Below, piece after piece: positions 7,670-29,133 of a stretch of DNA of 50,539 nt. Both the position numbers and the translations under genes were made by a program. Within the stretch, counting starts at the first letter, position 1, and every line of letters starts with the position of its first letter. A model generated the notes under the pieces. It had not been told where the DNA came from. It ran no database searches and saw only the letters and a list, made by a program, of their open reading frames with translations. The DNA is from a virus (taxonomy: Duplodnaviria > Caudoviricetes): IMG/VR virus record IMGVR_UViG_3300010400_000011, positions 1 through 50,539 of that record. One strand, 5' to 3'.

Positions 7670-7878
7670 AAAGGAACTATATGAAGAAAGTACTTAATAA
7701 CCCTAATGAAGGCTTCTTAGAGATGCTTAAGCGTCTAGATGAAGAGAACCATGGAGCCATGACTAAAGAAGAATGGGATACTCTGAAAGATAAATGGATG
7801 AAAGTATATTGGGAGATTAAGCATAAGGAGAAGAATCCTTTGCTTATGTCTTATGAAGACATCAGTAAAATGTACTGA
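7666..7878 (+). CDS. Hypothetical protein
   Basis: ORF overlapping the DUF4326 stop; alternative ATG at 7681 with AGGA RBS. Confidence 0.5.
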   Translation: MKRNYMKKVLNNPNEGFLEMLKRLDEENHGAMTKEEWDTLKDKWMKVYWEIKHKEKNPLLMSYEDISKMY

Positions 7879-7927
7879 TGTCGTATGAAGACATAAAGAA
7901 CATGTACTAATGCTTAATGAAGACTTA
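7846..7927 (+). repeat. 32-bp tandem duplication encoding MSYEDISKMY / MSYEDIKNMY / MLNEDL
   Basis: Units start at 7846, 7878 and 7910, joined by TGATG/TAATG overlaps. Confidence 0.75.
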
Positions 7928-8172
7928 GATGTTTCTTGCTTAGAGTGGGCTTTAAAGTTTATGAGAGATTACGAAAGGAAGCATAAGATTGAACATACAG
8001 AAGCTAATAGTAGTACCTGAAGACAGCGATACAGCTAGGATTTACGAGTGGTCAGAGAACCATCTGACCTACGAAGAACTCCTAGCTTTCATAGCTTCTA
8101 GAGGCAAAATACCCTCTGGAAGATGGTTAGATGCGCAGAAATGAATGTTTTCTCTCGACTGCTCGTAGAATG

Positions 8173-8237
8173 CCTCTAGGATTCAATTAGAAGCTCACTG
8201 GTGCGTTTAAATTCATGACTGGTACTACCCTACCTGA
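8173..8237 (-). repeat. Dispersed 65-bp element, copy A
   Basis: Reverse complement aligns ungapped to 20119-20183 at 46/65 positions (manual count). Confidence 0.7.
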
Positions 8238-8461
8238 ACACACTAACCCCCGCCTACGGCCTTCTAATGGCCTTGCAGAGGCATGTGGTATTTTACCCTC
8301 ACAAATGAAGAATTATTCTAGAATTCTAAACCATGAAGGATGGTGGGTTAAACTCGATGATTTGTACTGGATGTTAGAGATTGAAGGGTTAGATGAAGAT
8401 TGATTTCACTGATTACAGTAAGGTTAGTTATAATAGAAAAAGAACTGAGGAGAAGAAAGAT

Positions 8462-8569
8462 ATGGATAACTGGTTAAGAGAAGTCCTAGAAGTATTGATT
8501 ATAGGTATTGGAGTACTTATAGCTTTAGGAGCTTTATGCTTATATCTAGGTGATATACGTAAATGGTGA
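8462..8569 (+). CDS. 35-aa single-TM peptide
   Basis: GAGGAG RBS; MDNWLREVLEVLIIGIGVLIALGALCLYLGDIRKW. Confidence 0.5.
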   Translation: MDNWLREVLEVLIIGIGVLIALGALCLYLGDIRKW

Positions 8570-8948
8570 TGTCTGTTGAATGGTGGTGGAGTCTTCCTCT
8601 TGAGGAAAGAGAAAGATTAAATAAAATAGATTTAGAGAAAGTAGAATTTTGGTGCGATATGTTTGAGGTGTAATTCATTGGCGCTTATGCCACCCCCGAC
8701 CCCCCTTGGCCGGGGTGGCATACGGCATGCCAGATACCATAGGCGACGGTTCCGGCAAGGGTTATGCCAGACACTTACGCTATAATGCATAGCTTCAATG
8801 CATATGAAGAGTAGAGCATAAAGCTTGAGTGGCATTAGAGTTGCTTACGAGTCCTAATGCATTTATGCATAGCTTATAGCTTAGGTATGCGTATTTGCTT
8901 TTAGACGTCTCGGAGCAGATTTGCATAGCAGCTATGCGCTGCACGCAG

Positions 8949-8977
8949 TTGACCCATCGATCTAGACATGCGAATAT
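8949..8977 (+). promoter_or_regulatory. Putative early sigma70 promoter
   Basis: TTGACC-17 bp-GAATAT with TGC before the -10; same -35 as the promoters at 11443 and 14328. Confidence 0.45.
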
Positions 8978-9152
8978 GGTGGCTGGTTAGTTGATTGGTT
9001 TGGTAAGGGCATATCGAGGCAGTCGCCTCCGCGCCTTACCCACCGGGCACCTAATCGGGCTGTTTGAAACTACCTAACCAAGACATGGCCGCTATGGCGG
9101 TATCGTGTCTCAACCGCACCCCTGTCCTTGCCTGCCCTCATGGAGCAGAGCA

Positions 9153-11226: not shown

Positions 11227-11442
11227 ATTGCGCTGCACTCAGGTAGATATTGTATTGCACATCACCTAAGTTAATCAGGTATGTGCATTTGATGATAGGA
11301 ACACTGTATGCGTAAGGTGGCGGTGTATATATACCGTAGTGTACATTCTATGATCAATGCTATTTGGCCTAGCTCTGATGATAGGACGGCTGCTATGCGT
11401 AAGGTGTACTCGTGTGTTGCAGTCAGCTAACTAGTTAGCGCT

Positions 11443-11471
11443 TTGACCTATCTAGCTCGGCATGCTACAAT
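11443..11471 (+). promoter_or_regulatory. Sigma70 promoter
   Basis: TTGACC-17 bp-TACAAT with extended -10, followed by ATAGATACTGG. Confidence 0.7.
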
Positions 11472-11511
11472 ATAGATACTGGCATCTCGTCAGTAACTGA
11501 AGGGGAAAGAA

Positions 11512-13875: not shown

Positions 13876-14319
13876 ATGGTTAAGGTATATCTAACCTGCG
13901 GCGGATCACCGCTTTTATCACAGATACAAAGGGCTGTCAAGGCCTTTGTTATTCTTTTCTTCCTATCATCGGGGGTTGCGCATGGCATACCTAGCCCTTC
14001 TGGCCATATTTCTGACGGCGTTCTTAGTGGGAGTAGTCGCGGGGCTGCTCTACTCGTTGCTCGTCCACCTGATCCTCCGGAGGGTACGTTCGAAACTACG
14101 CACGCTCCTGTGATGTACGTCATCATGTGGCCTCCAGTGCCCACTCAAATCGAGCGGATCAGGCAAGAAGCATATCTGCAGCTCATGCAACAAGTACGGC
14201 AGCAGACTGCTGAAATCTCTGCCAAGCCTACTCCGACGTGGCATTACGTCCTTCCAGCTATCGGAGCTATACTGCTGCTGATGGCGGCCAGTTGGGAAAG
14301 GTGGAAGGTCCTCAACTAG
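13876..14319 (+). CDS. Putative membrane protein
   Basis: AGGAGG RBS; two hydrophobic segments. Confidence 0.5.
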   Translation: MVKVYLTCGGSPLLSQIQRAVKAFVILFFLSSGVAHGIPSPSGHISDGVLSGSSRGAALLVARPPDPPEGTFETTHAPVMYVIMWPPVPTQIERIRQEAYLQLMQQVRQQTAEISAKPTPTWHYVLPAIGAILLLMAASWERWKVLN

Positions 14320-14327
14320 TTAGGCGT

Positions 14328-14356
14328 TTGACCTGCCAAGATAAGTGTGGTAGTAT
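14328..14356 (+). promoter_or_regulatory. Sigma70 promoter homologous to 11443
   Basis: TTGACC-17 bp-TAGTAT followed by the same ATAGATACTGG. Confidence 0.7.
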
Positions 14357-14376
14357 ATAGATACTGGGAGAGGGAA

Positions 14377-14868: not shown

Positions 14869-15005
14869 TAGGTTGAGTATCTGGTGGGTACTCGTAAAAG
14901 GGTCGAACGGACGGCCCATCCTACTGAATAGCTCGGAGTAAGCCCCTCGCCGAGCTGTACCCGGCCCTTCGCCAGCTCCCCTCTGGCGGAGGGCCTTTGT
15001 ATTCA
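14869..15005 (+). ncRNA. Candidate structured sRNA with C/U-rich loops
   Basis: Four hairpins, including a 13-bp stem 14963-14975/14983-14995 with loop CTCCCCT. Confidence 0.45.
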
Positions 15006-15034
15006 TTAGGCATTGTGCCAACGAAGGATGAGCT

Positions 15035-15133
15035 ATGAAGAAGATCGTTCGTCGTTACAACAAACGTGGTATGTCGTTGAAGATTTCGGCCAAGGACCCG
15101 GTCACCGGCAAGCGCGTTCCCCGTATCAACTAA
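15035..15133 (+). CDS. 32-aa basic peptide
   Basis: MKKIVRRYNKRGMSLKISAKDPVTGKRVPRIN; AAGGA upstream; stop overlaps the next RBS. Confidence 0.5.
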   Translation: MKKIVRRYNKRGMSLKISAKDPVTGKRVPRIN

Positions 15134-15142
15134 GGAGGAAAT

Positions 15143-15625
15143 ATGGATACAACCACTTCGGTGGATTGGCAGTTCGAAGCACTTGCCGGTGCCTCGAGCA
15201 ACTTGCTACCCATCGAGTTTTCGGAGCTTACAGCATTTGACCTCGGCTGTCTGCTCGTCGGCATAGGGGTAGTTGCGTTGCTGTACCAATGGCATCGCAG
15301 CTGGGTCAAGCGGAAGGGGTTTCGCATGGTCCTTAAGGATCGAAACGACAAGATCCATGCCGCTTGGCTCGAAATCATCCAAGACGGCATCGACAATCTG
15401 CTCTCCAAGGGTAAGATCAGCAACAAAGAAGCAAACGCGATGTTCGCGGATGCTGCGCAAAGGATGCAACTCAACGATCTCATTCCGAAGAAGCGCATCC
15501 TGAAGATGACCAAGGAACGCCTGAAGCGTGATCGAGCTATGCGTGGCGTTTCACCAACACCCCCGAAGTTCACGGAACGTCTGGGCAAGACCGTCGGAAA
15601 ATTCTGGCGGAGGAAAGCAGCGTGA
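15143..15625 (+). CDS. Membrane-anchored protein ending KAA
   Basis: AAGGAGG RBS; TM segment LGCLLVGIGVVALLY. Confidence 0.7.
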   Translation: MDTTTSVDWQFEALAGASSNLLPIEFSELTAFDLGCLLVGIGVVALLYQWHRSWVKRKGFRMVLKDRNDKIHAAWLEIIQDGIDNLLSKGKISNKEANAMFADAAQRMQLNDLIPKKRILKMTKERLKRDRAMRGVSPTPPKFTERLGKTVGKFWRRKAA

Positions 15626-17280: not shown

Positions 17281-17306
17281 TGATTGATTTGAATATGGAG
17301 GAGCAT

Positions 17307-18017
17307 ATGGGCATTCAACAAACCGCTAATACTTTCGCCAAGCTTTTTGGTCAGGGTATTAACTTTCCTGACGCTGCAGAAGCTCGTTGGATCACCGACT
17401 CAGTTCGGCACTCTCCCGACCTTGGGTATCTCGAACAGTTTGAGTTTCAACTCCTGTTCGCCGCAGACGATACCAAGCTCAACCATTCCCACCACTGCCT
17501 GATCGAGGACAGCGCATTCGTTGCGAATGCCTTTACCGCCAATGCCTTCGAGTACTCATATCTCGAAACTGGCGAAGATCGGTTGCCGATCCCGATGATG
17601 AGCAGAATGCTCCATCAAACGATCAGGTACTTCCCCCCTCCTCTCAAAATCCAAGGACAGATCTTCGCGATCAGGCCTTATCAATTCAGAGAGCTTGACA
17701 ACTACAAGCAAAATACTGTACAATTCCGTCGTAAGCGTGTGAACTTAATCGTTCCGTACCGCGAGGTCAATCGAACGCAGTACTACAACGACGAATACGA
17801 CATGTACCAAGACCTTCCTCTCGTCCTCCAAGGAAAAGCTGTAGAGAGTCGAGAGCGCGTCCACATCGTCCGTGCTTGGATGTACGTCGGCATGGAAGAG
17901 TACTGGAATAACCTGCTCGACGCTGGCTTCCGAGGATTTAAAACAGTTAACATTTTTGAGTCACGGCGTCCGTGGCTAAAGGAGTATTATGCTTTCCCTA
18001 AACGACCGCTCAAGTAA
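17307..18017 (+). CDS. Gamma-glutamylcyclotransferase (GGCT/AIG2)-like protein, degenerate
   Basis: LLFAADDTKLNHSHHCLI, IQGQIFAI, LDNYKQ, FRRKRV and AWMYV match the GGCT pattern LFVYGTL..NH, VxGEVY, LDxLEG, YxR, AWVY. Confidence 0.65.
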   Translation: MGIQQTANTFAKLFGQGINFPDAAEARWITDSVRHSPDLGYLEQFEFQLLFAADDTKLNHSHHCLIEDSAFVANAFTANAFEYSYLETGEDRLPIPMMSRMLHQTIRYFPPPLKIQGQIFAIRPYQFRELDNYKQNTVQFRRKRVNLIVPYREVNRTQYYNDEYDMYQDLPLVLQGKAVESRERVHIVRAWMYVGMEEYWNNLLDAGFRGFKTVNIFESRRPWLKEYYAFPKRPLK

Positions 18018-19599
18018 AGCGGTAGGTAACGAAAGGTGTCCCGAGTGCGCTAGTCATGGTCGGGACACCTCTCATGATAATTTAATTGTTTTCGACGACG
18101 GGCATAAACATTGCTTTGCCTGTAACCACCATATTGGAGTTAATGGATTGAATGGAAGTCTTTCTGATACTGAGTATACTTTTGAATATTTACCTTTACG
18201 GGGCATTGACGTTGCAACGTTTAGAAAATATGGTGCTAAAACAAAGATTGACAAAGACGGAAAACCTATTGCTGTCAAGTACCCAGAAAGAAACGGGAGC
18301 TTTCATGTTCGTCCGATAGAAGGTAAATTAAAAGCTTACCACGAGGGCGAATACAAAGCTGGTTGTTTTGGCATTGATAAGTTTGTGCCCGGTTCTCACC
18401 GCCACATCGTAATTACCGAGGGGTATGAAGATGCGCTTTCTCTTCAGATGGTTCTACATTGTCCCGTCGTGTCTGTACACAGCAGCGGTAGTGCTGTCGC
18501 AGACGTTGGCGCTGACCGATCCGCAATTAACGCATACGACCGCATATATCTCGCGTTCGATGGAGATGAGGCGGGAAGAGATGCGGCAGCTGCGGTCGCA
18601 AAGCTATTCGATTATTCGAAGCTTTTTCAAATCAAGTTCCCCGGAGGCAACCGAAAGGACGCCAACGACTTCGTCCAGCACGGAGAACACGAGCAACTAA
18701 GGAGCCTATTCGAGAGCGCCAAGAAGTTCCTTCCCGACAACATCGAGAGCGAACTCAGGGTGTTCAAGAACATCCTGTTTGAGGCTCCTAAAGCTGGAGT
18801 ATCTTACGGGGTGCCAACGCTTGACTTTATGACTTACGGCATTCGCACTGGGGAAAGCGTACTGCTTACAGCTCAGGAGGGTGTTGGTAAGACTGAGGTC
18901 ATGCATAAGATCATGTACTCAATCTTAAAGGAACACCCCGATGCAGCCGTCGCAGGAATATTCTTGGAAGAACCTAAGAAACGATTGCTTCAAGCACTTG
19001 CGGGCATCTATCTCCGCCGCCCAGTGCATCTCCCGGATTGCGGCGTTACGGACATTGAGATTTACGACGCGGTACAGGCCCTTGTTAGGCACGATGACCG
19101 CCTACACATCTACTCTCACTTTGGGTCTGATGATCCAGAGCATATACTCGACACCATACGATTTCTCGTTAGTGCTCGTGGCTGTCGGTATGTCTTCCTG
19201 GATCACATTACTATGGTTGTCAGCGGTCTTGGAGGAGATAACGAACGGCGGGCTCTCGACTATCTTTCGACGAGACTCGAAATGCTCGTCAAAGAGCTCG
19301 ATTTCGCCCTTGTCGTCGTCTCGCACGTCAACGACGACGGCCTCACAAGAGGCAGCCGAAACATCAGCAAAATAGCTGACATTCGTATTGATCTGACACG
19401 CGACATCAAGTCGTCTGACCCGATAATCAGGCGGACGACTAATTTAATGATTTCAAAGAACAGGTTCTGTGGGCGCACTGGACCGGCTGGACAGTTGCTG
19501 TTTGATCCTGCAACTTACACGCTAAACGAGGATACCGGCTATGGCATCGCAACCAATCCAGCAAACGATAACCGGAGAATTGAGGAAATGGCATCGTGA
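17989..19599 (+). CDS. T7 gp4-like primase-helicase
   Basis: Zn finger CPEC..HCFAC, TOPRIM ITEGYEDA/FDGDEAG/KDAND, Walker A AQEGVGKT, FLDHIT, RGS and KNRFCGRTG. Confidence 0.95.
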   Translation: MLSLNDRSSKAVGNERCPECASHGRDTSHDNLIVFDDGHKHCFACNHHIGVNGLNGSLSDTEYTFEYLPLRGIDVATFRKYGAKTKIDKDGKPIAVKYPERNGSFHVRPIEGKLKAYHEGEYKAGCFGIDKFVPGSHRHIVITEGYEDALSLQMVLHCPVVSVHSSGSAVADVGADRSAINAYDRIYLAFDGDEAGRDAAAAVAKLFDYSKLFQIKFPGGNRKDANDFVQHGEHEQLRSLFESAKKFLPDNIESELRVFKNILFEAPKAGVSYGVPTLDFMTYGIRTGESVLLTAQEGVGKTEVMHKIMYSILKEHPDAAVAGIFLEEPKKRLLQALAGIYLRRPVHLPDCGVTDIEIYDAVQALVRHDDRLHIYSHFGSDDPEHILDTIRFLVSARGCRYVFLDHITMVVSGLGGDNERRALDYLSTRLEMLVKELDFALVVVSHVNDDGLTRGSRNISKIADIRIDLTRDIKSSDPIIRRTTNLMISKNRFCGRTGPAGQLLFDPATYTLNEDTGYGIATNPANDNRRIEEMAS

Positions 19600-19807
19600 T
19601 TCCAGCCTCAAAGGTGAACCCTGTGTCGTCGGTAAGATGTACAATGACATCCATGATATCTGGGAAGATGGCGAGGAGGCTGTGATTTATTACCGGAATT
19701 TTGTAGAGTCTCCCAACTTCTATCTCGCAGTAACCTCCGGCGGCGGTTGTGTAAAGTGCCCCAAGGATGAGGAGATTGTGCATCCGAGAAAGGCAGGCGC
19801 ACCGTGA
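19541..19807 (+). CDS. Hypothetical protein (88 aa)
   Basis: GAGGA RBS; overlaps the helicase 3' end. Confidence 0.55.
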   Translation: MASQPIQQTITGELRKWHRDSSLKGEPCVVGKMYNDIHDIWEDGEEAVIYYRNFVESPNFYLAVTSGGGCVKCPKDEEIVHPRKAGAP

Positions 19808-20022
19808 TCCTCCGAGGCGATAAAGCGTCGACGTACGATTTCGACGCATTCAAACAAACAACAACGGGCGTAAGACCCGGTGAGTTGGTGCTAATCACCG
19901 CTCAAAAACATGTGGGGATAACCCATGGGAACGTACAATCCTCTTCCTTCGTGGAGAGTAGCAAGGATACTCGACGAAGCAACGACCGGGAAGTCGTTGA
20001 ACCAGATAGCGAAAGAACTTAA
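19804..20022 (+). CDS. Small ORF carrying a DnaB-type Walker A-like fragment
   Basis: GVRPGELVLITAQKHVGIT versus helicase GIRTGESVLLTAQEGVGKT. Confidence 0.5.
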   Translation: MILRGDKASTYDFDAFKQTTTGVRPGELVLITAQKHVGITHGNVQSSSFVESSKDTRRSNDREVVEPDSERT

Positions 20023-20110
20023 AGAACCAGTCAGCACAGTCTGGAAGGTACTTCAGTCTTTTCCGCTATGGCATTGGGCACAAGCCAATAGGAAGGCCCG
20101 TGGCGGTTAA
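19925..20110 (+). CDS. Helix-turn-helix protein
   Basis: GKSLNQIAKELKEPVSTVWKVL HTH pattern. Confidence 0.65.
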   Translation: MGTYNPLPSWRVARILDEATTGKSLNQIAKELKEPVSTVWKVLQSFPLWHWAQANRKARGG

Positions 20111-20118
20111 AAACCCTC

Positions 20119-20183
20119 TCAGGTAGGGAGGTACCGGGCTGTAGAAATAACGCACCACGGAGCTTCCTAGGGCATCCTAGAGG
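20119..20183 (+). repeat. Dispersed 65-bp element, copy B
   Basis: Inverted homolog of 8173-8237; intergenic, flanked by AAAACCC/GGGTTTT. Confidence 0.7.
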
Positions 20184-20191
20184 GGTTTTAA

Positions 20192-20371
20192 ATGGACATC
20201 ATCGCTCAGCTGCGCTTTCAACTCGAAAGCATCGAATTCTGGATCAACATGCACTATTCGAAGAGCAGCGTTCGCGTAACACTCAAAGGCTTGGAGCGCA
20301 TGAAGCGTGCTCGCCATCGTCTGCTGAAGAATATCCTTCGTCACCAAATCCAGGAGTACAACCGTGATTGA
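20192..20371 (+). CDS. Hypothetical protein (59 aa)
   Basis: GAGG RBS; MDIIAQLRFQLESIEFW...; overlaps the next start. Confidence 0.55.
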   Translation: MDIIAQLRFQLESIEFWINMHYSKSSVRVTLKGLERMKRARHRLLKNILRHQIQEYNRD

Positions 20372-20753
20372 TGCAAATGCGGTTGAGAAACCGAAGACCT
20401 TCATGGTCTACGAGGGAGGAAGAGTAGACCCAGTTCCCAAGCCAGATGGAGTTGGACCCAAGGGTCCTGACTGGCTCAGAGAGCTGGGCTATGGTGCTCG
20501 TTTCGTGTGTCATGCGAAATCGACTGTCGGTTGCTGGCTTGACATGTACGGAGTAGCATTCGTAATGGATGAATGCATCCTTCTTATCAAGAACCCTGGA
20601 ACTCTCGGAGGAGAACTCGGTTGGGTGAAGTCCGAGGTCTTCTCTCAACAGTATAAATTAGTGGCAGTATTGCCCGAAAAACCTGACAATGAAGCAGGAA
20701 TTAACAATGAACATCATCTCCTTGGATCAGCCAACAGCGAAGACCATGACTGA
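20364..20753 (+). CDS. Hypothetical protein (129 aa)
   Basis: AGGAG RBS, GTG start. Confidence 0.65.
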   Translation: MIDANAVEKPKTFMVYEGGRVDPVPKPDGVGPKGPDWLRELGYGARFVCHAKSTVGCWLDMYGVAFVMDECILLIKNPGTLGGELGWVKSEVFSQQYKLVAVLPEKPDNEAGINNEHHLLGSANSEDHD

Positions 20754-20874
20754 CATGCGAGGTCTGCTGAAGGTATACGCATCGCAAAACAACTCCGATG
20801 GTCGATACTCCGAAGCCATCGATAAGTATTCAGCTGTCTATAAGACGCTGATGAATGAAATCCTCGGAAGGTAA
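20707..20874 (+). CDS. Hypothetical protein (55 aa)
   Basis: AGGA RBS before MNIISLDQPT. Confidence 0.5.
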   Translation: MNIISLDQPTAKTMTDMRGLLKVYASQNNSDGRYSEAIDKYSAVYKTLMNEILGR

Positions 20875-20950
20875 CCGAGAGAGGGACGAAAACGACATAC
20901 TGTAGAGTAGTCCCTCATTCATTAGGCAATTCCGCCAAAGAGGAGAAGAC

Positions 20951-21088
20951 ATGTTTCGCAATCCGTTTGTGGACTTTCTGGTGACACTGCTTGGAGTAGG
21001 TGTGGTTCTGCTCCTCCTCCTCTACCTCACCGGCAACATCCATTGCTGGAACCTCCCTATCATCGGCCGCGGCTGCAACATCGGCTAA
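20951..21088 (+). CDS. 45-aa single-TM peptide with two Cys
   Basis: GAGGAG RBS; MFRNPFVDFLVTLLGVGVVLLLLLYLTGNIHCWNLPIIGRGCNIG. Confidence 0.6.
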   Translation: MFRNPFVDFLVTLLGVGVVLLLLLYLTGNIHCWNLPIIGRGCNIG

Positions 21089-21177
21089 CAACACACGCAG
21101 GGGCTCCGTATGAACTACAAGCCCCTGCGTATTCCTTAGCACATAAGTGCACAAACTCCCTACAAGAGGAGCGCACA

Positions 21178-22050
21178 ATGAACTTCCAGGAACGTGAACG
21201 TTTTCGCCGGATGAAGAACATCCAGAAATGGATGGCTTTTCCGGGTAAAGCAAAGAAAGTCGTCAACCCGCCAGAACCGCAGGGATTTAAACTTGTAGAG
21301 CCGGCTGACGCTTGCAAGCTTGCCAACATCATGAAGGTTGGCATTAATGCCAACATGGTTGTCGGGCATAATCGTTGGGGTGACCAGATCACAAAGCCTA
21401 AGGCTTCGCCTTTCCAGTGTCCTTGGAACTTCATTGCTCGTCTTGAGAAGCGCGGGTTCAAGGTTCTAGGACGAGGTGCTTACAGCACTGTTCTGGCTAA
21501 GGATGGGTCAGATCGCGTCATCAAGGTCAGCAGGACGTTGGATAACTGGATCGACTACATCCAGTGGGGCGCTAAGAAGGGATACGCCGGAAACTTCGTT
21601 CCTCGCGTGTATTCTTGGAAGCGCCACACCAATCCAAGCGGTGAAAAGAACGAGTGGAATAACGAACGTGAATGGTCGGTGGCTATTGTGGAACGAATGG
21701 ATGATGTCCTTTCGGATCACAAGAAAGACATGGCTCTGATTTTGAGCTTGTATTATCCAGCTCAGTGTGGTAATACAATGGCTAAGGTTTACATGGAAGA
21801 CCTAAGCCCCGGTTCAGCGAAGTTCTTCGAAGAGCTTGCCGCCAACCAGTTTGCATCAGACATCGCCGGCAAGAACGTCATGGTTCGCAAGAACGGTTCG
21901 CTGTGCGTTACCGATCCAGCTTGTGGTTCCATCAAGACAGACAAACGACGACTTCGGACGGGGGAGCTTTCCCCCGCTCCATTTTCATTAAGGAATTTCA
22001 TTGAGGGTTGTAATAGATATAGAAGCGAATGGATTGCACAACCCAACTAA
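21178..22050 (+). CDS. T7 gp0.7-like Ser/Thr protein kinase
   Basis: LGRGAYSTV Gly-loop, RVIKV, PRVY, DIAGKNVM catalytic loop and TDP; GAGGAG RBS before ATG 21178. Confidence 0.85.
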   Translation: MNFQERERFRRMKNIQKWMAFPGKAKKVVNPPEPQGFKLVEPADACKLANIMKVGINANMVVGHNRWGDQITKPKASPFQCPWNFIARLEKRGFKVLGRGAYSTVLAKDGSDRVIKVSRTLDNWIDYIQWGAKKGYAGNFVPRVYSWKRHTNPSGEKNEWNNEREWSVAIVERMDDVLSDHKKDMALILSLYYPAQCGNTMAKVYMEDLSPGSAKFFEELAANQFASDIAGKNVMVRKNGSLCVTDPACGSIKTDKRRLRTGELSPAPFSLRNFIEGCNRYRSEWIAQPN

Positions 22051-23935
22051 GATTTGGTTAGTTGTTTGCAAAGACATTGATACTGGTGAATATAATATAT
22101 TTAGAAAGGTTTCAGATGACGATATTGAACTACGTAGATTACGTGACTACCTTAGTGGCGCTAAGCTTGTCATTGGCCACAATTACCTTGGCTACGACGG
22201 TGTGCATTTACTTAGACTTACGGGAATTGAAGTCCCAACTGAACAAGTTCTTGATACCCTCATTGTCAGCAAACTCGTAGACTTTTCACGACAAAGTCAT
22301 TCGGTAGAAGGCTATGGAGAAGAGTTCGGATTACCAAAGGGAAACTTTACAGATTTCAGTAAATATTCCATTGCTATGGAAGAGTACTGCATTAGAGACG
22401 TGGATATTACGGAGCGCATTTATAACAAGTATCTTAAGTATATTTCTAATAGGGATCGCCAGCCTAGTATCCGCCTGGAACATAGTTTTCAATTAGTTTG
22501 TAATGATTTGGAGAAGAATGGATTTGCTTTCAACACAGCTAAAGCTCAGCAATTATTAGATAAAGTACAGACAGAGCTAGCTACGTTAGACAAGGACATC
22601 CTTTCTTCTTTTCCACCCCGTGAGGTATTAATTCGTGAGTTCACGCCTAAGGCTACTAAGTTTGGGACTATTAATAAATCTTCTGTGCCTCGCGTCTTAC
22701 ATGATCGAATGTGTGATTTCGAGATTGGAAAGACTTATAGACATACTAGACAAGAAGAGTTTAACCCTAGTAGTCACAAACAAATTATCAACGTCCTTAA
22801 CGAGGCGGGCTGGAAACCTATAGATAAAACTAAGACGCACATCGAAACAGAACGTGCAATAAATACTGGCAGATCAGATATTCATTTGACACAAGCTGAA
22901 GCATATGCTAAGCTTGAGATACTAAAGAAGGTCGGATGGAAGGTTAACGAAAACAATCTAGAAACTCTCCCACCTTCCGCTCCAACTTCTGCCCGCCTCC
23001 TCGCGAAGCGCATCCTGCTTGAGTCCCGCCGCCGAACATTAACTGAGTGGCTGGACCTAGTGTCAGTGGATGACCGTATCCATGGCCGCTTCTACGGTCT
23101 CGGCGCTTGGACTCACAGGATGGCGCATCAAGCGCCAAATACCGCGAACATACCCAACGAGTTTGATACTGCTGGAAAACGAAAACTTTTAGGGAAAGAA
23201 CTCCGTAGCCTTTGGATGGCCCCTAGAGGTAGATTACTCGTTGGGTGTGACGCTGAAGGTATTCAGCTTCGTATCTTTGCGCATTACATCAACGATCCTG
23301 ACTTCACACGTTCATTAGTCGAAGGTAAGAAGGAGGATAAGAGTGACCCACACAGCCTTAATCAAAGTATTCTCGGAGACGTCTGCAAAAGCAGAGCAGC
23401 AGCAAAACGATTTATTTATGCGCTGCTTCTCGGAGCGGGCAAAGGTAAACTGCGTGAAATTCTTGATTGCTCTGAAGAAGCTGCAGATCAAGCTTACGAG
23501 CGACTCTTGGCTAGATATACGGGATTTGCCTACCTCAAAGAGAAGGTCATACCTGCTGACGCTAAACGAGGATGGTTCGTTGGACTTGACGGCCGTGCAG
23601 TGCGAATACCTGGTGCGGAAGTTGGATCACGCAGACATCTGGCAATGTCTGGGTATCTCCAAAACGGAGAGGCTGTAGTAATGAAGATGGCCACCCTGAA
23701 GTGGTGGCCTTTACTGAAACAATACGACGCGAAGCTTGTAAACTTCGTGCACGATGAATGGCAAGTCGAATGTCCAAATAATATGACTATTGCTTTAGCC
23801 ATTGCTGATATGATGGCTAAGAGCCTACAGCACGTCGGAGAGGAATTGGGTCTTAAATGCCCGCTGGCAGGCTCTTACTGGAATGATGATTTAAAAGATT
23901 ACACAATTGCTACCAACTGGAGTAAGACACATTGA
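22001..23935 (+). CDS. Family A DNA polymerase (T7 gp5-like) with 3'-5' exonuclease
   Basis: DIEANGL, GHNYLGYD and YCIRDV exonuclease motifs; DAEGIQLR, KRFIYALLLG and VHDEWQ polymerase motifs. Confidence 0.95.
   Translation: MRVVIDIEANGLHNPTKIWLVVCKDIDTGEYNIFRKVSDDDIELRRLRDYLSGAKLVIGHNYLGYDGVHLLRLTGIEVPTEQVLDTLIVSKLVDFSRQSHSVEGYGEEFGLPKGNFTDFSKYSIAMEEYCIRDVDITERIYNKYLKYISNRDRQPSIRLEHSFQLVCNDLEKNGFAFNTAKAQQLLDKVQTELATLDKDILSSFPPREVLIREFTPKATKFGTINKSSVPRVLHDRMCDFEIGKTYRHTRQEEFNPSSHKQIINVLNEAGWKPIDKTKTHIETERAINTGRSDIHLTQAEAYAKLEILKKVGWKVNENNLETLPPSAPTSARLLAKRILLESRRRTLTEWLDLVSVDDRIHGRFYGLGAWTHRMAHQAPNTANIPNEFDTAGKRKLLGKELRSLWMAPRGRLLVGCDAEGIQLRIFAHYINDPDFTRSLVEGKKEDKSDPHSLNQSILGDVCKSRAAAKRFIYALLLGAGKGKLREILDCSEEAADQAYERLLARYTGFAYLKEKVIPADAKRGWFVGLDGRAVRIPGAEVGSRRHLAMSGYLQNGEAVVMKMATLKWWPLLKQYDAKLVNFVHDEWQVECPNNMTIALAIADMMAKSLQHVGEELGLKCPLAGSYWNDDLKDYTIATNWSKTH
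22886..22914 (+). promoter_or_regulatory. Putative internal sigma70 promoter
   Basis: TTGACA-17 bp-TAAGCT with extended -10 TGC, inside the polymerase gene. Confidence 0.4.
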
Positions 23936-24063
23936 CGAATGAAGAGATTGAACGTTTAATCGATTACATCGCAGACCCTACAAAAGCTTATCTTGAGTTT
24001 TCATTGGATGAAAGCAATACAATCATTGAAGCTTTAGAAGCATACAAGGAAATTAATAATTGA
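23932..24063 (+). CDS. 43-aa acidic peptide
   Basis: GGAG upstream, TTG start; overlaps the polymerase stop and SSB start. Confidence 0.45.
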   Translation: MTNEEIERLIDYIADPTKAYLEFSLDESNTIIEALEAYKEINN

Positions 24064-24533
24064 TACAAGATACCCGCACATTTGACATCTCTCCAAAGTC
24101 TGACCAAGTCAAGTTCAGAGGAAAGGTCACGTGGGCACAGTTGATTGACCCTAACAAGTTCGGCAATTGGAGCCTCAACCTCTACCCAGACCCTGACAGT
24201 CTTGAACGACTGCGGGAGCTGACTTTGAAGAATGTCTTCAAGAAAGACGACGATGGTTATTATCTTCAGATAAGCCGTCAGAGTAACGTCGAGTTCGTCA
24301 AAGGAGTTCAAACTGGACTGACACCTCCTAAACTTCAGATGAAGGATGGAAGTCCTGTAACTGAACGTATCGGTGATGGAAGCATTTGTGAAGTCACTTG
24401 TGAACTCAGGAAGTATAAAGTCCCTAACTCAGAGAAATGGGGCAATGCCATACGTTTATATCGTGTGACTGTCGAGGAATTCGTTCCTTCTCAGTACAAG
24501 AAAGACGAAGGTTGGGATGGTAAGACGTCCTAA
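24060..24533 (+). CDS. Single-stranded DNA-binding protein (T7 gp2.5-like)
   Basis: GKVTWAQL..P, PPKL..DG, IGDGS and AIRLYRVTVEEFV pattern; next to the polymerase. Confidence 0.75.
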   Translation: MIQDTRTFDISPKSDQVKFRGKVTWAQLIDPNKFGNWSLNLYPDPDSLERLRELTLKNVFKKDDDGYYLQISRQSNVEFVKGVQTGLTPPKLQMKDGSPVTERIGDGSICEVTCELRKYKVPNSEKWGNAIRLYRVTVEEFVPSQYKKDEGWDGKTS

Positions 24534-27204
24534 CCTGTTGGCTTAGTCAGCAGAAGGTCTGTTGACTCACAGTTGTAGTCGAGAAGTCAACCGGAGCGCC
24601 CCTACCCGTTGCAACAATGGGGCTCAAGAGTTGCTGATGGCGATGGAAAAACAGCACCCCGCTCGCAAGAGTTTCGTGTCTAGCGAATGCAAAGTGGGTT
24701 TTCGCACAAATAGCTCCCGGTTACTCGGGGCTATTTTCTCTTCGGGGTGAAGCTTTCGGCCAGACGTCTTTAGGCAAGGAAAGTGAGACAGAAGAACTAG
24801 TAGCTGCCACTAGTCCCCATAAGCAGCACAATTTATTAATCTACCGACGGGAAGAGCTAATCGCTATCCGTCGTCGACTGTAGCTCAAGCAGAGCCCCAC
24901 ATTGTATAGTCTTGTGTCCGGCTAATACCGGAGTAATTCAAGGTGCGGAAGCGTGGGAGGTGGGATTATTAGCAGTGTCCCCGGTCAAATACTCCCGCAG
25001 CCTACGGGTCCCTTGGATGGCGATGATCGCCCGTAGAACTCTCCCGAAAACTGATCAGATGGAGAGATGAAACAAGCAACGTATCGCGGCAAGACCGGGT
25101 GCTCGTAAAGCCGGTCGCTATTCATTAATCGAGGTGCAGTATGAGAAACGGCACTAACCGTACCGGCCGATCGTTGAACTCAACAAGTGTGAGTGGAGTA
25201 CGGAACTGCACCTCTTTGAAATCTGTGACGATGAAACCTCATCGCTAGCGCCTTCAGGAAGCGCCGTCACAGTGTGTGCGCATTAAGTTGCGCTCCCTGC
25301 CTGTTAGTGGAGGCCTCAGGTCCAAACTGAGAGCATTGTGCCACGACTGTGCAGCAGCTGGGTTGCCAGCATATCACTGCGAGCATTGTACGCATAATGG
25401 ACCCGCCAGATAAGCGGTCATCCAAATGGCGTGCCGCTACAAATGACTCCAGCTAGCTCAGCCCGATGGGTTGTAAAAGTGGTTCAAATCCACCTGAGCT
25501 ATTCAGGCGTGATCCGACAATCTCTAACCTCCGGGAGCATGGCCCGGTTACCAACTAGGACTTGGCTGTAGGGACACTTCAGGGACACCAGAGATGGAGC
25601 AAACCAATGCTAATCCTGAAGCACGGTGTCGAACCCGTGATAACGGTGGTCCAGTCACAGGCACAAGAGAAAGTCCGAGCGCAGCGGTCCCATTAGCCGC
25701 GTAGCAACCAGAAATATGGCTTATTACCTGTGCTGACACACGGGGACAGTCCTAGCTGTGGGCTAGGGTTTATGACCTCCTTAGGAGGAGCCAGTCCGAA
25801 GAAGTGGCCCTGAAGTGCTAGGGTGCAACCGAAACATGTGGGCACGTTGGGACGTATGAACCCAAATAGGACAAAGATGTCGACTGAGACCTAGGAGCAA
25901 TGATCTACAGGTTCATTGTTGCCGAACTGACGCTGACCCTCTGATGAAGAGGGTATAACTCAACAAACATCACCTTAGCAAAGGCAGAAACAACAAGCGT
26001 TCCATAGGATACTCTGTTTAAAGCTGGGAGCGTTACCCAGACCCTCTAATGAGGTGTGTCATCGGACAAAACCTGAGACCTATGAGGCAGAGACGATAAA
26101 GGGCGGTTCGACTCCTCCCCATGGCGGGCAGCACGTACTGTTGTATAAGCTACTGTTGTTAAAACCTGATGTGAAAGTCCGAAAGGTGAGAACAGGAAAT
26201 AAGACATCCTTACGTACTCCGGTAGCAACAGAGTTTATTGCCAGACGGTTGGCAAACGTAAACGATGCAAAGCGTTAGCGTAAGTACCAGTCAAAAGAGG
26301 AGATTGCCCTCGTTAAAACAGTCAGCCAGCCCTGAGGAAAGATGGGCAAGCCTACGGTAATGGCGTTCCGTTCTAACGTCTAGAGTTAAGGTAAGTCTGA
26401 CCCTCAATCAGACCCACCCACTGTTTGCCACCGTTCACTCGGTAGTTGCCGCAGGGAGCTTGTCCCTCCAATAGACCGCTAGTGTTCACTGACATCAGGA
26501 ACTCGCCAGAGGAAAAGCACCGCTGGGTAAGCGCCTCGAAAGAATGCCAGTATGCCTATTCTTCCTGTCGGCCAACTGTAAATTGGTCCCACTTTAAGGT
26601 CCCGTGAGGGAGTGCCGTGGTGGTGAGTAGATGCCGGAAGTACTCCGGGTCGGAGACAGGCTAAATGAGTAACCCTCAATAGGTGAGATCACCGATCGTC
26701 TATCGGCGGATCAAGCAGACGGCGGATAACGTCGGGGTTATCGTTGTCAACCCAATCCATCATGCAATGTGTACGCTCGGTCGTACTGCTTGTTATGGAG
26801 TAAGTAGCTGCCACAGGCCGGCAGTTGATGAGAACGAACACCAAAGCAACAGTTGTATGGATGACTCGCGCTAGACCGCTGGAAGCAGCGTCAGATGCGA
26901 GATGAGGAGCAGACAAGCCGTAGTGATCGTAGATCACGTCATAGTGATTGAAAATCACGGAAGAGAACCACCGGGTTAAGTGGTAGTTACACGCCGCGTC
27001 CGGGCCGGATGTCCTAAGTCTCTGACGTCGTACAATCGCATTAAGACTAACCCAAGCAGGAAGAGAGGCCATCATGACACATGTCCAACCCCGAACCCTG
27101 CACCAATACTTAAAATACGTCACACAAGCCCCACGTCCCCCATAAATAAATAAGAAGGGCAGGGGGCCAGCAAAAGCTGGCTCCTGAGCCACAAGGAGGT
27201 TACG
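24534..27204 (+). ncRNA. ~2.67-kb highly structured non-coding region (giant ncRNA or ncRNA array)
   Basis: No credible RBS-led ORF; dozens of hairpins and long-range helices, G-U pairs favouring the + strand, T-loops, GNRA/UUCG tetraloops. Confidence 0.7.
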
Positions 27205-27516
27205 ATGAAGGCATCAGATTTGATCCAGCTGTTGGAATACGGCAAGGCGTTCAAGGAGCCTAAGCCGAAGCGCCGCAGCAAGAAGGATTTCGAACTAGAC
27301 GGCATTAGCATCACGATGATGCTGCACAAGAGGTTGGAAGAAGCAGCAGCTTTGAAGAAGCTTCTTGACGACTACGAGAAGGCCAACAAGAAGGAAGAAA
27401 AGAAGGAAGAAAAGAGCTGGTCAATTGCCACGATTTCCACCTTCTATATCGCTACCTTCCCTATCATCGGGCCGCTCGCAGTGCTGGGCTTCCGCTCTCT
27501 GATGCACGGAGGGTAA
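27205..27516 (+). CDS. Hypothetical protein with C-terminal hydrophobic segment
   Basis: AAGGAGGT RBS. Confidence 0.75.
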   Translation: MKASDLIQLLEYGKAFKEPKPKRRSKKDFELDGISITMMLHKRLEEAAALKKLLDDYEKANKKEEKKEEKSWSIATISTFYIATFPIIGPLAVLGFRSLMHGG

Positions 27517-27886: not shown

Positions 27887-28771
27887 TTGAAGAATATTAA
27901 TACTCTCATCAAGGATGTTTATCATGTCGCCGAACAAGAAAGCTGGCTTAGTCCAGATGACGCTTCGCGATATAGTTCTCAAATGGCGACTGCAGTCATG
28001 GAACGGCTCTTGGACGATCGATCCGGACAAGCAGGCCGCCTTCGTCTCTCTGCAATGGGTGAGGTCTGCCCAAGAAGCTTGTGGGCATCGGTTCACGCAC
28101 CAAGCGTACGTGAGAGACTCCCAGCCCACGTCAGGATCAAATTCCACTTTGGCGATGTAGTCGAGGCACTAGCAATAACTCTTGCTAAGGCTGCCGGACA
28201 CACAGTCACAGGAGAGCAAGATGAACTCGAGCTACTTGGCGTCAAGGGTCACAGAGATTGTGTCATTGATGGGGCTATTGTGGATGTCAAGTCTATCAAT
28301 AGCATGGGCTTTCAAAAGGTCAAAGCTAAGCTGGTTGCCGAAGATGTTTTCCTTCGGTCTTATCTGGATCAGCTCGATGGGTATCTTCTGGCATCTGCTA
28401 ACGACCCCTTAGTAACAGTAAAGGATAAGGCCTATCTTTGGTGTATAGACAAAAGTATGGGCCATATGACATTGTATGAACACAAACTTAGATCAGACCA
28501 CATACGTCAAAGGGTTACACAGTATAAGCAATACGTGGCTCTCCCTGAGCCCCCTGCTTGCACGTGCGGTGTCATCCCAGACGGTCAGTCTGGAAACCTT
28601 AGACTTGATCTTAAAGCAAGCTACAATCCTTACAAATACTTCTGCAACCCTCATCTCAGAACTTTCCTCTACAAAGAACGCGGAGGAACCAAACCAGTCC
28701 ACCTCGTGAAGGTTATACGGAAGCCTGACGTCACCGAGGTTGACAGAGACGGACGTATCGTGTATAATTAA
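27887..28771 (+). CDS. PD-(D/E)XK (Cas4-like) exonuclease
   Basis: LRLSAMG..CPR, KFHFGDVVE, GHRDCVIDG..VDVKS and YLDQL..Y motifs. Confidence 0.85.
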   Translation: MKNINTLIKDVYHVAEQESWLSPDDASRYSSQMATAVMERLLDDRSGQAGRLRLSAMGEVCPRSLWASVHAPSVRERLPAHVRIKFHFGDVVEALAITLAKAAGHTVTGEQDELELLGVKGHRDCVIDGAIVDVKSINSMGFQKVKAKLVAEDVFLRSYLDQLDGYLLASANDPLVTVKDKAYLWCIDKSMGHMTLYEHKLRSDHIRQRVTQYKQYVALPEPPACTCGVIPDGQSGNLRLDLKASYNPYKYFCNPHLRTFLYKERGGTKPVHLVKVIRKPDVTEVDRDGRIVYN

Positions 28772-29133
28772 TGTCAGCTAGAGCAAGACATTTACTTAAG
28801 AAATACGGAATAAGTGAGGATCAATATGATATCCTTTTGCGGAAGCAGGGAAGTCGTTGTGCAGTGTGTGGCCGACATTCTGATAGCTTTAAAACCAGAC
28901 TCTCTATCGATCACGATCACCACTCGGGGTTCATCCGAGGACTGCTATGTACGTATTGTAACCGATACGTCGTTGGTCGACACCGTAAAGGTCAAGGTTC
29001 TGAACTACTCAGAGCAGCTTACGAATATCTCATTTCCGACTACCCCGGTTGGATAGTCCCGCCTAAACCCAAACGAAAGAAAAGGAAAAGACATGAAACC
29101 CGAAACAGAAAAATCGCTCTTCAGCGTATTTGA
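28771..29133 (+). CDS. Recombination endonuclease VII family protein
   Basis: KYGIS..Y, CAVC and IDHDHHSGFIRGLLCTYCN. Confidence 0.9.
   Translation: MSARARHLLKKYGISEDQYDILLRKQGSRCAVCGRHSDSFKTRLSIDHDHHSGFIRGLLCTYCNRYVVGRHRKGQGSELLRAAYEYLISDYPGWIVPPKPKRKKRKRHETRNRKIALQRI

Follow-up and report, generated by a model that had tools for sequence, protein, structure and literature searches.

What does a phage keep in a 2.67-kb stretch of DNA that holds no recognizable gene and lies within its replication gene block? The locus in question occupies positions 24534 to 27204 of IMGVR_UViG_3300010400_000011, an IMG/VR virus record (Duplodnaviria; Caudoviricetes) of 50,539 nucleotides (nt), which was analyzed over its whole length and is called the window here. 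An earlier sequence-only reading had described the locus as gene free and densely base paired and had proposed that it specifies either one very large structured RNA or an array of RNA modules. Because no protein is coded there and conservation runs domain by domain with matching base-pair changes, we conclude that the locus is probably a conserved, probably new, and unusually large structured noncoding RNA of a clade of uncultured soil phages.

24534..27204, + strand: whole stretch free of open reading frames (ORFs), 2.67 kb, from the ORF list and six-frame stop counts

That the stretch is gene free is borne out by its ORF lengths, by stops in all six frames, and by a lack of codon phase. The longest + strand ORF is 74 amino acids (aa) long (26054-26278), with a longest stop-to-stop frame of 99 aa; the sole long frame, a - strand ORF of 167 aa (26689-27192), had no PHROG or Pfam match. 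Stop codons number 22 to 49 per frame in the six frames, and the translations look random. Since all three kinds of stop are frequent in every frame, recoding would open no frame, and recoding or an alternative genetic code was ruled out. Related loci were gathered through the family A DNA polymerase (PolA) as 80 of 148 confirmed IMG/VR relatives and 80 of 441 metagenome relatives; the Cas4-like exonuclease, used as a query for related loci, gave no pattern match. Against 80 related loci, tblastx matches were confined to islands conserved at the DNA level and occurred in several frames simultaneously, which ruled out pseudogene remains, and no conservation of small ORFs was found across the related loci. 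Pairwise alignment of the homologous stretch showed mismatches evenly distributed over codon phases (P = 0.52, 0.14, and 0.64); the same test on PolA and on the flanking genes p157 and p103 of the same genomes gave a third-position excess (P = 1.2e-7 to 5.5e-36). Neither a conserved open frame nor a third-position bias, the marks of a small protein-coding gene, was found in the locus. The homologous intervals of the two closest relatives, L095 (1677 nt) and L096 (1912 nt), have longest + strand ORFs of 67 aa and 43 aa, respectively.

Conservation of the locus was followed in the interval between p157, whose homologues directly precede it in the relatives (tblastn), and the exonuclease gene. 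This interval measures 1.6 to 4.2 kb where PolA identity is at least 49% and 0.1 to 0.9 kb in the most distant relatives (43 to 45%); in L095 and L096 (PolA identity, 75 to 77%), it is ORF free. Positions 25131 to 27204 (~2.1 kb) have collinear counterparts, ORF-free and located at the same point of the genome, in at least 10 distinct contigs. The alignment of L095 with L096 extends over ~1.6 kb at 71 to 73% identity, and both match the window from 25131 to 27204 in collinear islands of 75 to 92% nucleotide identity, whereas the flanking p157 and p103 proteins are merely 43 to 54% identical in the same relatives. Ten profile blocks (A and C to K) were all matched in order in the window, L095, and L096, and ordered subsets were matched in the L002 group (L002, L101, and L140, identical at the locus), L100, L094, L099, L097/L098, L103, L119, L131, and L102. 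The order of domains D to K is the same wherever they are detected. Within this series, the core comprises domains C to J (about 25214-26920), which we infer to be one large multidomain RNA of ~1.7 kb here and ~1.3 kb in the shortest relative. The conserved units are as follows:

25131..25214, + strand: module A, portable, ~84 nt, in 7 distinct contigs
25214..25445, + strand: core domain C, which holds helix 25223/25265 (covariation)
25454..25501, + strand: tRNA-like minihelix, an insert absent from L095 and L096
25500..25725, + strand: core domain D-E, with a long-range closing helix pairing 25507-25518 with 25673-25682 (covariation)
25870..26000, + strand: core domain F, a hairpin whose TATA-type loop is conserved, with conserved strands flanking it
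26000..26205, + strand: core domain G, a closing helix round a hairpin, followed by T-loop hairpin 26101-26119 (covariation)
26265..26445, + strand: core domain H, with core hairpin 26395-26413, loop CCCTCAA, and flanks TAAG and CCCACCCACTG (covariation)
26515..26920, + strand: core domains I-J, which hold helix 26564/26655 (covariation)
27025..27204, + strand: block K, a leader that is conserved and runs up to the p103 ribosome-binding site

Models of the H core (R1) and of domain G (R2) gave 25 and 23 locus rows, respectively, at expectation values (E) up to 0.1 and with the model-building sequences included; all were on the + strand and inside the same interval. With the limit at E < 0.01, R1 had matches in 10 of the 76 distinct complete intervals, and in each of these PolA was at least 62% identical. 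Domains G and H are collinear in L003/L012, as are the weak G and H matches in L155/L156. An H-core pattern had no match in one genome each of 185,579 prokaryote species and matched only the L002 contig in IMG/VR (the window's own record left out), while a block C pattern had no match in viral contigs. As far as these sequence comparisons reach, the locus occurs in a single clade of soil phages, which have a T7-type replication module in common. In a relative of about 93% identity from a 2025 soil run, the cores are retained and four segments are replaced (25532-25656, 25713-25882, 26198-26267 [68 nt by 16], and 26920-26962), which are the stretches that vary in L095 and L096 too. Replacement of such segments around kept cores is the behavior expected of peripheral elements of a folded RNA.

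Many relatives with no detectable homology to this RNA also have 1 to 2 kb without ORFs of at least 70 aa in or near the same interval (e.g., L033 8246-10279, L019 14092-15520, L015 5214-6551, and L062 7869-9047). These stretches could be diverged versions or other RNAs.

For covariation, RNAalifold was applied to module A and to seven block alignments from the core domains; six alignments were counted with controls, and block F was folded without controls. The six counted blocks contain 132 predicted pairs, 68 of them changed on both sides, with 90.8 to 97.2% of cells paired. In every counted block, covariation exceeded that of shuffled alignments (0 of 500 shuffles as high), and sliding the 3' partner by 1 to 3 columns lowered the score to at most 0.152, versus 0.266 to 0.690 observed:

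Block C: 41 pairs, 15 changed on both sides; 92.7% paired; covariation 0.266 versus 0.117 shuffled
Block D-E: 20 pairs, 8 changed on both sides; 95.9% paired; covariation 0.275 versus 0.114 shuffled
Block G: 15 pairs, 9 changed on both sides; 90.8% paired; covariation 0.479 versus 0.171 shuffled
Block H: 9 pairs, 6 changed on both sides; 94.4% paired; covariation 0.690 versus 0.176 shuffled
Block I-J: 26 pairs, 19 changed on both sides; 91.2% paired; covariation 0.508 versus 0.245 shuffled
Module A: 21 pairs, 11 changed on both sides; 97.2% paired; covariation 0.413 versus 0.153 shuffled

Block F has 8 pairs, 5 of them changed on both sides. The H hairpin has a stem that differs in nearly every genome around an invariant loop, CYCTCAA, and domain D-E contains, besides its closing helix, a hairpin (GCGGT...GCCGC) with a conserved loop. 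Block K has a covarying hairpin whose loops are of GNRA type in relatives; it was detected more widely than any other block (17 locus rows; nhmmer), and the last 150 nt of the locus fold with a z score of -2.00.

Six long-range helices had been named in the sequence-only reading, and all are present in the sequence at the places given for them; the three with counterparts in relatives proved to be conserved. The helices GAGGTGCAGT (25131) with ACTGCACCTC (25205) and CTGTGACG (25223) with CGTCACAG (25265) are kept by compensatory change in relatives. The third, CCTGTC (26564) with GACAGG (26655), is a helix of 5 to 6 bp found in the same place in all nine rows with seven different sequences; RNAalifold missed it because of misalignment. 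In helices 24655/24743, 25577/25614, and 26245/26423, one arm or both lie in window-specific DNA that has no counterpart in relatives, and for the strand at 26423 a different conserved partner (~26284-26290) fits the relatives. With more than 500 nt of covarying multidomain structure and no coding potential, the locus resembles the large ornate phage noncoding RNAs as a kind, not as a homologous family.

The 5' part of the locus differs from the rest in its distribution, as positions 24534 to 25130 have no counterpart in L095 or L096. It contains the following features:

24708..24745, + strand: terminator-like hairpin, window specific, with a 12-pair stem (24708-24736) and then a T-rich tail
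24831..24841, + strand: A/T-rich linker motif ATTTATTAATC, from a motif scan
24878..24978, + strand: module B, portable, ~100 nt, also in L034 and L039 (alignment of 3 sequences only)
25064..25131, + strand: conserved 68-nt piece, 90% identical in the L002/L100 group, with hairpin GACCGG...CCGGTC and then a linker

The terminator-like hairpin has a fold z score of -2.04 (3 of 200 shuffles fold as well). The 68-nt piece ends in the second linker motif, ATTCATTAATC, at 25120-25130. The consensus ATTYATTAATC has exact copies at 24831 and 25120 and nowhere else; allowing one mismatch raises the number of matches to 7, versus 2.19 expected, and none of 100 shuffles reached 7. This excess, and a similar motif before the next domain in relatives, indicate that the A/T-rich linkers pointed out earlier are real. 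They were seen only at the 5' end, where they stand ahead of the 24841 hairpin, module A, and domain C. The linker motif was also considered as a phage-specific promoter, an idea left unsupported by PHROG scans, which found no phage RNA polymerase in the genome.

Module B combines two hairpins, one D-arm-like (GCTC/GAGC) and one variable, with a long-range helix (CCCAC/GTGGG) that reads CCCGA/TCGGG in L039, a difference of two compensated pairs. Module A has a closing helix (P1), a hairpin with an invariant 13-nt loop (P2), and helices P3/P4; its sequence core is nearly invariant, and its single-sequence fold has a z score of -2.52. In L034, L089, L115, and L052, it occurs without the core, 30 to 120 nt upstream of unrelated small genes, and in three other contigs more RNA follows downstream. 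Two contigs of other viruses (66 kb and 43 kb) contain the first ~28 nt of the module A core at 96% identity (L084 2966-2995 and L092 1186-1215) and diverge completely past it.

Comparison with known RNA families, suggested as a check at the outset, matched no family to the locus. At the Rfam gathering score, there was no hit in the window, and the ten related loci gave one ordinary tRNA elsewhere and nothing else; at E of at most 10, only chance-level matches to unrelated families were found. The covariance models of the large RNAs GOLLD, ROOL, and OLE did not match the locus. Neither ARAGORN nor the Rfam tRNA model found a tRNA in the window, and ARAGORN did not call the minihelix at 25454-25501. 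RNase P RNA was ruled out: there was no model match, and the GAAAGUCC motif at 25670-25682 pairs with 25507-25518 in a covarying closing helix. The models of group I and II introns likewise did not match, and stop codon, ribosome-binding site, and start codon are each separately present in the flanking genes.

Resemblances to host RNA parts, suspected from the sequence, hold for some elements. A 5-bp stem with a 7-nt loop of tRNA T-loop pattern is found in hairpin 26101-26119, in a second hairpin in 6 of 8 rows, and in the minihelix. Hairpin 26101-26119 has the loop TTCGACT, a covarying stem, and a T-loop pattern in 8 of 8 rows; the second hairpin lies within the domain G closing helix and is not of this type in the window. 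In the minihelix, an acceptor-like stem of 8 bp is joined by a small hairpin and by a T-arm-like one whose loop reads TTCAAAT. Together with the D-arm-like hairpin of module B, these elements sustain the resemblance to tRNA parts, while the supposed RNase P-like GAAAGTCCG motif does not stand, the first of its two copies being explained by the domain D-E closing helix.

In three distant relatives without the large locus, tRNA or tRNA-like genes (ARAGORN) lie in the same interval between p157 and the exonuclease, which is short in L071 and L072 and longer in L035. They are a tRNA-Trp and two odd tRNA-like calls with unassigned anticodons (L071 12822-12897, L072 12911-12985, and L035 13065-13160).

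We lean, with modest confidence, toward a large multidomain RNA with portable 5' modules. Modules B and A would precede the core; domains C to J would act as one large RNA in which each domain has its own closing helix and variable peripheral hairpins; and K would follow as a leader for the next gene. Hairpin loops fit the T-loop pattern on the + strand only, and on that strand the UUCG/UCCG and GAGA/GAAA loops read as stable tetraloops; from these loops and the orientation of the neighboring genes we infer that the locus is read on the + strand within the long + transcription unit of the replication genes. Given that no phage RNA polymerase was found and that sigma-70-type promoters lie upstream, the host enzyme probably transcribes the locus together with those genes. 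Dense local structure would protect the long untranslated RNA, and the tRNA-like elements or inserts may serve as processing sites at which host tRNA-processing enzymes release it, yielding a stable trans-acting ornate RNA by analogy with GOLLD and ROOL. The T-arm-type hairpins could then engage host tRNA-handling machinery or tRNAs during infection, with p103, by its adjacency alone, as a candidate RNA partner. The suggestion of decoys or sponges in the sequence-only reading is compatible with this mechanism. A more specific form of the proposal is tentative: the core (~1.3 to 1.7 kb) may be a single stable RNA that evolved from a tRNA island and whose paired T-arm-type hairpins dock onto host tRNAs or tRNA-processing or -modifying enzymes or drive self-assembly into an RNA particle, with the basic, membrane-anchored p103 as a possible partner.

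Several results weigh against a single large RNA, or against the evidence used for it. Folding energy does not single out the locus. Among 18 tiled 150-nt windows, z scores ranged from +0.95 to -2.00 (mean, about -0.43), with 1 of 18 reaching -2, and a separate set of 26 windows over the locus had mean z scores of -0.39 on the + strand and -0.81 on the - strand. These values are less negative than those of the neighboring coding DNA, where 25 control windows in the replication genes (~17300-22100) had means of -1.43 (+) and -1.08 (-). Dense base pairing beyond chance, as first described, does not hold up by energy (mean z of about -0.4 versus -1.4 in the coding DNA), and under the refuting condition named beforehand, folding like that of shuffles, the claim fails. 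Base pairs do not tell the strand: the helices that are predicted on both strands hold 20 G-U versus 21 A-C cells, and the summed consensus energy is slightly better on the - strand (-89.6) than on the + strand (-85.0). No promoter or terminator bracketing the core was found in a sigma-70 and terminator scan, which showed no excess of either (2 promoter-like sites versus 4.0 expected; 6 terminator-like sites versus 4.3). A whole-locus alignment gave 12 candidate helices spanning more than 300 nt, none of which convincingly joins the domains in one molecule; the five inspected were weak or came from 4 sequences. The block alignments hold 7 to 11 related sequences each (7 or 8 in the counted blocks), and the structures were predicted from the same alignments on which they were tested, so the shuffle counts are not probabilities. 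Finally, the occurrence of modules A and B alone in other phages means that the 5' part, at least, is modular.

Folding energy is a weak detector of genuine RNAs, and comparison with relatives was used instead for this reason. The proposal of a structured RNA owes its support to covariation and not to energy: noncoding sequence, conserved RNA-type structure, modules, and a recurring A/T-rich motif were found, and folding above that of shuffles was not. As a separate observation, the coding DNA of the replication genes at ~17300-22100 folds clearly better than its own shuffles, more so than the noncoding locus.

The two alternatives offered at the outset, a single very large RNA and a modular array, are still the two leading readings. 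As an array, the locus would be a polycistronic series of independent RNAs of ~60 to 200 nt, cut at A/T-rich linkers or tRNA-like elements into tRNA-like pieces, aptamer- or ribozyme-like modules, and small regulators, each acting alone. We regard this as possible and on balance unlikely. It would account for the solitary module A in L034, L052, L089, and L115, for module B in L034 and L039, and for the presence of module A in the window, L095, and L097 when it is missing or replaced in L096, L094, L099, and L002; it also agrees with the recurrence of the linker motif ahead of modules, the local nature of every supported helix (span of at most ~190 nt), and the tRNA genes in the interval of distant relatives. 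The fixed order of domains D to K, the restriction of the linker motif to the 5' end, and the lack of internal promoters or terminators in the scan argue instead for one unit. A single transcript could also be a very long structured cis-acting leader for p103, the Cas4-like exonuclease, and endonuclease VII that sets expression timing, shields untranslated RNA from Rho or nucleases, or senses through module A. Block K, the widest in distribution, reaches the p103 ribosome-binding site, no terminator lies between the core and p103, and module A has the near-invariant, aptamer-like core and the position upstream of small genes that would suit a riboswitch, although the genes concerned in the four contigs are mutually unrelated. 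This explanation is improbable: 1.3 to 2 kb of covarying structure exceeds the needs of any known bacterial or phage leader, and L034 has B and A alone before a p103-like gene, for which the core is therefore dispensable.

Elements acting as DNA (a replication origin, primase or recombination sites, or single-stranded DNA hairpins) would fit a position within the replication gene block, helices that are almost purely Watson-Crick (788 of 878 cells), and the symmetry of G-U and A-C cells noted above. The T-loop and tetraloop sequences are strand-specific RNA motifs, however, multihelix junctions and a length of ~2 kb are unlike known origins, and iterons or repeat arrays were not found in the stretch, which leaves this explanation very improbable. 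That the locus is a cluster of very small protein genes or of decayed pseudogenes seems scarcely credible. Tiny genes are frequent in phage early regions, several ORFs of 30 to 74 aa are present, and at 25141 a GAGGTG-ATG start leads into a frame of 35 aa; that frame, however, is module A and meets a stop after 14 codons in L052, protein-level conservation is absent, substitutions lack codon phase, and + strand ORFs in the homologous intervals never exceed 43 to 67 aa. The large multidomain RNA with portable 5' modules, with its fixed domain order and no internal promoter or terminator, remains the arrangement toward which we lean.

The record is complete, with 123-bp direct terminal repeats. 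Both arms of the genome carry - strand structural and packaging genes (portal/adaptor, large terminase, and tail appendage). The central + strand block encodes primase-helicase (17989-19599), PolA (22001-23935), the Cas4-like exonuclease (27887-28771), and endonuclease VII (28771-29133); the locus sits within this block, and all flanking genes are on the + strand:

24060..24533, + strand: p157, upstream flanking gene, 157 aa (ORF), marking where the locus is bounded on its 5' side in all relatives
27205..27516, + strand: p103, downstream flanking gene, Lys/Glu rich with a hydrophobic C-terminal segment

p103 is the constant next gene after the locus in the closest relatives, with homologues in L095 and L096, and neither p157 nor p103 matched a PHROG or Pfam family. 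In L034, a protein encoded 3' of module A (14993-15289) has a p103-like make-up and no similarity to p103 detectable by tblastn. No cultured phage was found by blastn of the region, and the best PolA match was 40% identical (Roseobacter phage CRP-5).

Elsewhere in the window, two 54-nt copies (11429-11482 and 14314-14367; 74% alike) each carry a sigma-70-promoter-like arrangement, TTGACC ... TACAAT/TAGTAT, which suggests that the + strand block is read by host polymerase. A second ORF-free stretch of ~1.2 kb (7879-9104) lies where genes switch from the - to the + strand and GC skew flips sign; it is preceded by two 32-nt tandem copies (7843-7906; 81% alike), had no Rfam match, and may be an early control region or replication origin. 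L105 and L106 are parts of one 142,532-bp metagenome contig that contains the polymerase locus twice, ~49.5 kb apart and with identical intervals. Several genome copies seem to be joined head to tail in this contig, either as a concatemer or through an effect of assembly.

Among known systems, GOLLD is the nearest in kind. The passages on GOLLD in PMC12286853 describe a phage- or prophage-encoded, large, multidomain RNA defined by covariation and of unknown function, with lengths of more than 800 nucleotides in many of its members, a 3' part that is conserved and a 5' part that is less so, and a frequent location near tRNA islands, with tRNAs sometimes within a linker. Our locus likewise has a variable 5' part and a conserved 3' core; one of its linkers contains a tRNA-like insert, and its position is occupied by tRNA genes in distant relatives. 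In contrast to GOLLD, it has no Rfam match, a core of ~1.3 to 1.7 kb, and a distribution limited to one soil phage clade. The likeness to GOLLD, as described there, is one of kind and context. ROOL, in the same source, is a phage-encoded ornate RNA near tRNA islands whose protein partner and function are not known (PMC12286853). Judged by that description, our locus is similar in being phage encoded and of the ornate RNA kind. It differs from ROOL in having no match to the model and in being longer, as ROOL is much shorter than the present locus.

OLE is a large ornate RNA that acts together with a small membrane protein whose gene lies next to its own (PMC9723947). Like OLE, the locus is adjoined by a gene for a Lys/Glu-rich protein with a hydrophobic tail (p103), a link of adjacency only; unlike OLE, it shows no shared sequence or model similarity. 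Phage tRNA clusters, such as the tRNA region of T4, are noncoding islands whose precursor is cut by host tRNA-processing enzymes. The locus resembles them as a noncoding island with T-arm-type hairpins and an acceptor/T minihelix, and it departs from them in that no tRNA was called in the window and its conserved domains are not cloverleaves. An IMG/VR catalogue lists 8495 short candidate structured RNAs of 29 to 151 bases (PMC10690425); these come from the same source (intergenic regions) and rest on the same kind of evidence as our locus, and they are far shorter. Single modules, for example, A or the H core, may be among those candidates. The literature searched gave no description of a comparable locus, and the relevant passages of PMC10690425 describe no collinear multidomain locus of this size. 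The locus is a real feature and is best filed as a new family in the small class of large structured phage RNAs, GOLLD- and ROOL-like in kind. If the core is a single RNA, about twice the size of GOLLD, it would be the largest structured noncoding RNA known from a phage.

To our knowledge, few large, intricately folded bacterial or phage RNAs have been described besides rRNA, RNase P RNA, tmRNA, and introns. GOLLD, ROOL, and OLE were recently shown to form RNA-only assemblies, with functions that are open, in the account given by PMC12286853. A further family, unrelated in sequence and up to about twice as long, would widen this small set and offer a new target for cryo-electron microscopy and functional work. 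The case also shows that energy z scores miss such RNAs, which synteny and covariation find. If the tRNA-type hairpins matter, they would represent a route by which phages touch host tRNA metabolism.

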